A DNA stretch of 64,000 nt from Escherichia coli (GTDB lineage: Bacteria > Pseudomonadota > Gammaproteobacteria > Enterobacterales > Enterobacteriaceae). A model generated the notes under the pieces. It was given only the letters and a program-made list of their open reading frames with translations. It was not told the origin of the DNA and made no database searches. A program made the translations under genes and the position numbers. Shown here in pieces: positions 62,415 to 63,185 of this stretch (its first letter is position 1; every line of letters begins with the position of its first letter). The stretch is taken from assembly GCF_009931435.1 (NCBI RefSeq), contig NZ_CP043414.1; one strand, given 5' to 3'.

Positions 62415-63185
62415 TTAACTGGCGGTGACGGTGATTTCTGCAACCGCAGCAAACTCACCATTACCGGATACGACCGGAATGTTGACCTTACCTGCAGCAA
62501 CGCCATTCACGGTGATGGTCATACCACTGACCGACACGGTGGCTTTTGTTTTATCCGCTGACACCGCACGGAAGCTCTTGTCGGTTGCGCCTTCCGGCTG
62601 GAATGCCACGGTCAGCGTGGTGCTCTTCCCTTTCACTACGGAAGCGCTGGCTGGCGTCACGGTCATACCGGTTGCCGCTGTTACCGTGCTGCGATCTTCT
62701 GCCATCGACGGACGTCCCACATTGGTGACTTTCACCGTGCGGGTGATCACTTCCTTCGCCGTCACCGCCTTACCGATACTGCTGACCCAGCCACGGAACA
62801 CATCGACCGTGCCGTTCGGGAAGCGGATTTTATAGGCACGGGTATCGCCTTCATTAAACCACGCCAGCAGCGCCTGCTGCCCCTGCTCTCCGGGCATCCA
62901 CGCCAGCGTGAAGCTGGTATCTCCGGCAGATTTCTGCCCCTGCCCGGTCGCAGTCCAGTCTGCATCTTCATCATCGAGATAGCTGTCGTCATAGGACTCA
63001 GCGGTCAGTTCGCCGGGCGTCAGGTCTTTAACTTTTGCCAGACGCGACCAGTCAACGTCTGAAAGCGGATTCGCATAAGGGTCACCGCTCCCCTTATAAA
63101 CCCACAGGGTGGTCCCGGCACCTTTCACCGGCATTGTAGGATTTGGTACAGGCATAGCGTCCTCACATTTCATAGGTAATGACAT
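62415..63185 (-). CDS. V: Major tail tube protein V with C-terminal Ig-like domain
   Basis: 256-aa ORF; C-terminal about 80 aa beta-rich Ig-like region ([19 protein letters not shown]...). Confidence 0.85.

Follow-up and report, generated by a model that had tools for sequence, protein, structure and literature searches.

The last 81 codons of an open reading frame on the minus strand (62415..63185), close to the end of the window, i.e., the whole 64,000-nucleotide stretch of DNA analysed here, raise the question of which domain they encode and what this domain does. An initial annotation of this segment (62418-62660, minus strand), which ends in ...AEITVTAS, had described it as an Ig-like decoration domain of the Big_2 type at the C-terminus of the major tail protein V. 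The present analysis establishes the identity of V, its domain architecture, its fold and its gene context. Taken as a whole, the best explanation, which we regard as almost certain, is that the flagged stretch represents the C-terminal Big_2 Ig-like domain of gpV, the tail-tube protein of a lambda-type prophage. No observation spoke against this identity or against the fold.

Gene V encodes a 246-residue major tail protein

Gene V is located at positions 62415..63155 on the minus strand and consists of 246 codons followed by a TAA stop codon (62415-62417). Its product, the major tail (tube) protein, was found to be identical to gpV of phage lambda at 243 of 246 positions (98.8%) in comparisons with PDB sequences (chains 6P3E, 8IYD, 8IYK and others). 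In addition, the protein matched the PHROGs family phrog_41, major tail protein, over its full length (1-246 of 245; E 1.3e-125). The DNA of the gene is 97.8% identical to that of lambda (J02459) and 99.7% identical to that of Escherichia phage Chlobot. Together with the Pfam matches and the order of the tail module described below, these findings verified the initial assignment of the gene as that of the major tail protein V.

The initial annotation had numbered the protein as if it comprised 256 residues, and this numbering proved to be incorrect, as the upstream in-frame ATG at 63185 falls within gene U. The start of V is the second ATG, at 63155, which gives a protein of 246 residues. This length is also found for the RefSeq homologue, for the PDB chains and for the CDS of the lambda GenBank record (8955..9695), an old label of which still says '256'. 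A Shine-Dalgarno-like GAGGA was read from the sequence at 63160..63164 on the minus strand, where it precedes the ATG at 63155 by 4 nt and overlaps the TGA stop codon of gene U. The presence of this putative ribosome-binding site would support the 246-residue start. Unless indicated otherwise, the residue numbers given below refer to the 246-residue protein.

Gene V is part of a lambda-type tail module

Directly upstream of V, we found gene U, which encodes the tail terminator (63163..63558, minus strand; phrog_37, E 6.7e-62). Gene G, encoding a tail assembly chaperone, is located directly downstream of V (61977-62399, minus strand) and is followed by the T frame, likewise for a tail assembly chaperone (61561-61995, minus strand). 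The region spanning G and T (61561..62399) gave matches to phrog_42, phrog_39 and phrog_32165. In the overlap of G and T there is a slippery heptamer, GGGAAAG (62001-61995, minus strand), as in the lambda-type programmed -1 frameshift that gives rise to the G-T chaperone fusion, and this frameshift is annotated both in the homologues and in lambda. Further downstream lies gene H for the tape measure protein (59007..61568, minus strand), an open reading frame of 853 codons; the homologue at the equivalent position is annotated as 'phage tail tape measure protein', and lambda H also consists of 853 residues. V thus occupies the position expected of the tube protein gene, with the terminator U on one side and the chaperones G and GT on the other, and upstream of the tape measure gene H. 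The complete order, U-V-G-T-H and then M, L, K, I, J, stf and tfa, is the lambda order, and the U-V-G-T-H arrangement was the same in the homologues.

The window ends in this lambda-type tail module, which is apparently intact, and the end of the window (64,000) falls inside the tail/head-joining genes. A match to the 12-kb stretch from 52000 to 64000 was present in 5041 of the 5426 complete E. coli genomes. Scanning the region from 61500 to 64000 for promoters and terminators revealed no promoter-like site and just weak terminator-like hairpins within coding sequence.

Several features elsewhere in the window were observed in parallel. A lom-type gene is absent between J and stf, the side tail fibre gene, which directly follows J. 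The side tail fibre gene (50511-53096, minus strand) is an intact open reading frame of 861 codons with a phage_tail_N domain, and it is also intact in the closest E. coli genome (L002, 10512-13097). In RefSeq, just the N-terminal 1.5 kb of this gene is marked, namely as a pseudogene that is partial ('missing C-terminus'); the label is likely an annotation artefact, or else the C-terminal part is unlike the reference model. The tail fibre assembly gene (49977-50507, minus strand) lies about 0.5 kb from a tRNA-Ser(tga) gene (49398-49485, plus strand), located at the end of the prophage and adjoining hyaA; beyond this tRNA gene extends the chromosomal hyaABCDEF-appCB-appA region. This prophage was detected at the tRNA-Ser(tga)/hyaA site in only 22 of the 5426 complete E. 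coli genomes (at least 80% coverage of 40000-53200). For the appCB-hya segment (41000-48900), the best identity among these 5426 genomes was 98.6%, and none of them reached 99%. The host belongs to an E. coli/Shigella-type lineage that has no close representative among those 5426 genomes. Lastly, Rfam matches that reached the gathering score were obtained for a full-length cspA-type thermoregulator 5′ UTR at 30155-30577 on the minus strand, with 156.9 bits, and for the small RNA ES036 (CssrF) at 13468-13510 on the plus strand, the latter with 38.5 bits and thus just over the cutoff of 37.6.

[quoted passage not shown]

The domain limits of lambda gpV have been set at residues 1-156 and 157-246, the C-terminal part (gpVC) being a Big_2 domain that was solved by NMR (PMC8718954), and lambda gpV is also listed as Big_2 in Table 3 of PMC9022992. 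The protein encoded here showed the same architecture. Its N-terminal tube-forming domain (residues 1-156; 62688..63155, minus strand), with the tail-tube fold that builds hexameric rings, matched the Pfam family Phage_TTP_12, the lambda phage tail tube family, over residues 18-152 (E 2.7e-70), and the PDB entries 2K4Q and 7T2E of the gpV N-domain with E-values of about 1e-102. [quoted passage not shown] Pfam PF02368 (Big_2) matched residues 161-239 (62439-62675) with 70.7 bits (E 1e-19), covering profile positions 2-77 of 79. This is well above the Pfam gathering score for Big_2, which is 22.8 bits, and the flagged fragment of 81 residues by itself still reached 68.0 bits (E 6.9e-19). In addition, the lambda NMR structure 2L04 aligned to residues 158-246, the last 89 residues of V (E 2.8e-43), and over the entire C-domain 87 of 90 residues (97%) were identical to lambda gpV. 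V therefore combines Phage_TTP_12 and Big_2 in the manner of a lambda gpV-type tube protein.

To judge the flagged range, we compared the different estimates of where the domain starts, namely residue 158 by the 2L04 alignment, residue 161 by Pfam and residues 163-167 for the first strand of the model. The flagged range, residues 166-246, does lie in the Ig domain, but by starting at residue 166 it misses the first ~3-9 residues and with them most of strand A.

A search with full-length V returned close relatives only, all at least 71% identical to it, and the combination of Phage_TTP_12 and Big_2 is shared by 119 of the 120 that were listed. The one exception, P0110, aligned to 78% of the query and matched PF16461 only. 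When residues 149-246 were compared with a representative library of 1.84 billion proteins, related domains were found in 3451 proteins at E≤1e-3, and most of these were long multi-repeat proteins, a bias that is expected for Big_2.

The lengths of the V relatives ranged from 217 to 401 residues. Those of odd length that were aligned displayed internal tandem duplications, frame changes or deletions, and in P0054, P0085 and P0120 the deletions affect the Big_2 domain. For the longest relatives, P0001-P0009 (285-401 residues), extra Pfam hits suggest additional sequence. Candidate explanations for the odd-length relatives (P0001-P0009, P0057, P0085 and P0054) are that they represent real alleles, decaying prophages or assembly artefacts.

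The fold of the domain was predicted with AlphaFold2 for residues 149-246 from an alignment of 52 sequences, including 51 domain sequences that were taken from the library search and were 29-95% identical to the query. The resulting model had a mean pLDDT of 85 and consisted of eight beta strands without any helix. This alignment-based model was used instead of an alignment-free prediction of full-length V, which was not usable (pLDDT 36). In a Foldseek search of the PDB, the top matches of the model were lambda gpV structures, i.e., 7T4F (TM 0.89) and 2L04 (TM 0.79, rmsd 2.4 Å). These were followed by Big_2-CBM56, the S-layer protein SbsC, a chain of a phage N4 capsid reconstruction (9E99; decoration), Leptospira LigA and T5 pb6. 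The idea that a Big_2-type Ig-like domain forms the C-terminus of V could have been dismissed if residues 175-256, in the 256-residue numbering, were predicted to lack an Ig-like fold. Instead, the eight-stranded model superposes on both 7T4F and 2L04, and the Ig-like beta-sandwich typical of Big_2 is thus apparent from the model, from the Foldseek matches and from the 87 of 90 residues shared with the solved lambda domain. The NMR structure 2L04 of the lambda gpV C-terminal domain was reportedly determined by Pell et al. in 2010 (PMID 20826161).

The alternating hydrophobic and polar pattern on which the initial annotation had relied is indeed present in the last ~80 residues of V, a segment in which V, A, T and S are abundant. 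Conceivably, a composition of this kind could reflect a chance beta-rich tail of low complexity, or the segment could merely lie opposite to a gene on the other strand, as a mechanical listing of open reading frames contains one of 136 codons at 62425..62835 on the plus strand. We consider the probability of either to be negligible, since the sense frame yields the Big_2 and 2L04 matches with E-values of 1e-19 and 2.8e-43, respectively, and a confidently predicted fold that superposes on solved structures. The antisense frame was rejected as a gene, because it had no Pfam match and 12 of the 15 codons that differ from lambda are synonymous in the frame of V.

The differences from lambda define a small, probably mosaic tract

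The three amino acid substitutions that distinguish V from lambda gpV, T171A, Q177K and V190A, are all located in the C-domain. T171A maps to the second strand of the model, Q177K to the turn that follows and V190A to the next loop. A171 and A190 are also present in PDB 9MFE, and alleles with all three variants, P0017 among them, are common in E. coli prophages. Of the 17 nucleotide differences between V and its lambda counterpart, 16 fall within codons 157-246 (Fisher p about 9e-7), where 12 of the 15 changed codons are synonymous. A sliding comparison with lambda revealed a divergent tract of about 700 bp, from ~62700 to ~62001 on the minus strand, with about 33 differences at 3-8 per 100 nt. 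This tract comprises the V C-domain (codons 157-246) and all of gene G, whereas the flanking V N-domain and T differ from lambda at 0-1 positions per 100 nt. On the left, its edge falls on the domain boundary of V, and on the right, on the slippery site of the G/T frameshift.

A faster protein evolution of the C-domain was considered for this pattern and rejected, as 12 of the 15 codons changed synonymously and the tract continues through G. Because the changes are mostly synonymous and the divergence runs on through G, the V-C-domain-plus-G tract has the appearance of a small patch of mosaicism or recombination.

[quoted passage not shown]

The analogy with lambda suggests how V would act in the assembled tail. 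The N-domain (residues 1-156) would polymerise around the tape measure protein as a stack of hexameric rings, forming the conduit for the DNA, while the C-terminal ~90 residues would fold independently into an eight-stranded beta sandwich outside each subunit. The hexameric rings and the placement of the Ig domain outside the tube are transferred, at 98.8% sequence identity, from cryo-EM studies of lambda (PMC8718954, PMC12617516), and the exterior position of gpVC in these studies lends support to the decoration of the tube that the initial annotation had proposed. On the lambda tube, gpVC is found at the surface in three helical arrangements, and the tube contains 31 gpV discs (PMC12617516). 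At six subunits per ring, about 186 copies of the Ig domain would thus be displayed per tail. The Ig fold of gpVC is aligned with the axis of the tube, touches the beta1-beta2 loop of its neighbour and adds an intra-ring contact (PMC8718954). With 97% identity over the domain, the copy encoded here would probably lie along the tube surface in the same way and touch the beta1-beta2 loop of the neighbouring subunit. When gpVC was removed from lambda, tails were formed but their activity was 100-fold lower (PMC8718954). By transfer from lambda, tails would form without the Ig domain of V, but full infectivity would require it, and its deletion would lead to an about 100-fold loss.

The most likely mechanism on the basis of this analogy is that of a surface decoration that would stabilise or organise the exterior of the tube, and that may also engage in weak multivalent contacts with cell-surface glycans at adsorption. 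Weak adhesion to surfaces or carbohydrates had been put forward in the initial annotation as well. This clause is a fair statement of current opinion, yet a hypothesis rather than a demonstrated fact: cell-surface carbohydrate binding (Fraser et al. 2006) 'remains to be experimentally verified' (PMC8718954), and the function has been called 'unclear' (PMC9022992). Glycan binding by the Ig domain of V is therefore regarded here as putative and possible.

The parallel orientation of the lambda domain and its contacts with neighbouring subunits indicate a structural or assembly role at least as much as adhesion. To the view that the Ig domain is mainly such a structural element, which stabilises or tunes the flexible tail as an exterior lattice and is not an adhesin, we assign a substantial probability, albeit somewhat short of even. 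The lattice would rely on the beta1-beta2 loop contacts and on a head-to-tail polarity between domains, so that this view departs from our preferred explanation in function only. It is favoured by the additional intra-ring contact and by the surface network that has been proposed for lambda, where deletion of the domain costs 100-fold activity, whereas removal of the Ig domains of SPP1 or T5 has no such effect (PMC8718954). The 12 synonymous and 3 non-synonymous codon changes relative to lambda likewise point to purifying rather than diversifying selection on the domain. On the other hand, lambda tails still assemble in the absence of the Ig domain and the interfaces between domains are not resolved in the lambda structures (PMC8718954), while the cryo-EM density of the domain is weak and flexible (PMC9022992). 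Moreover, conservation among 32 relatives was lower in the C-domain than in the N-domain, with mean identities of 74% and 89%, respectively, a pattern that one would rarely expect of an element in a tightly packed lattice.

In some pairs of these relatives, the identities of the N- and C-domains are uncoupled (e.g., 97%/69% and 86%/97%), in keeping with the mosaicism known for Ig-like domains of phages. It is conceivable, though in our judgement improbable, that lambdoid prophages exchange the Ig domain as a module, under selection for adaptation to the host surface or the environment (glycan, mucus), so that its alleles, including the one described here, would differ functionally in adhesion. 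If true, such a module exchange would broaden the 'promiscuity' concept of Fraser et al. 2006 without introducing a new principle.

Comparison with known systems

The Ig-like domain of V is already known in full structural detail, having been solved for lambda in 2010 and in several later cryo-EM reconstructions. It is a textbook domain, and the significance of the present analysis lies mostly in the correct annotation of the 246-residue start and of the domain boundaries. The real question concerns the role of Ig-like domains on the tube surface, and a copy with three differences from lambda makes this question no more testable.

The closest known system is lambda gpV itself (UniProt P03733; gpVC PDB 2L04; tails 6P3E, 7T4F, 8IYD/8IYK and 9MFE), which shares with V the U-V-G-T-H module, the domain architecture and the length. 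The two differ by the three C-domain substitutions and by nucleotide divergence that is concentrated in the tract of the V C-domain and G. T5 pb6 (PDB 5NGJ) likewise carries a C-terminal Big_2 domain on a tail-tube fold, at the exterior of the tube, and was matched by Foldseek with a TM of 0.71 at 22% identity. A C-terminal Ig-like domain that is attached to the tube fold and exposed on the outside is also found in YSD1 (Big_1), SPP1 gp17.1* (FN3) and HK97 gp12 (I-set). The domains of T5 and YSD1 are orthogonal and flexible and do not touch the tube, in contrast to the lambda-type domain, which is parallel to the axis and contacts its neighbour (PMC8718954). SPP1 adds its Ig domain by frameshifting to a fraction of the subunits (PMC9022992), while that of V is encoded in frame on every subunit. 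Beyond phages, surface proteins of bacteria carry PF02368 Big_2 domains (intimin/invasin type, LigA, SbsC and the Big_2-CBM56 modules of glycoside hydrolases) that belong to the same family and share the same fold, with 22-34% identity and TM values of 0.67-0.80. These bacterial proteins contain tandem arrays of the domain and are located at the cell surface or secreted, whereas V carries one copy fused to a tube protein of the virion.
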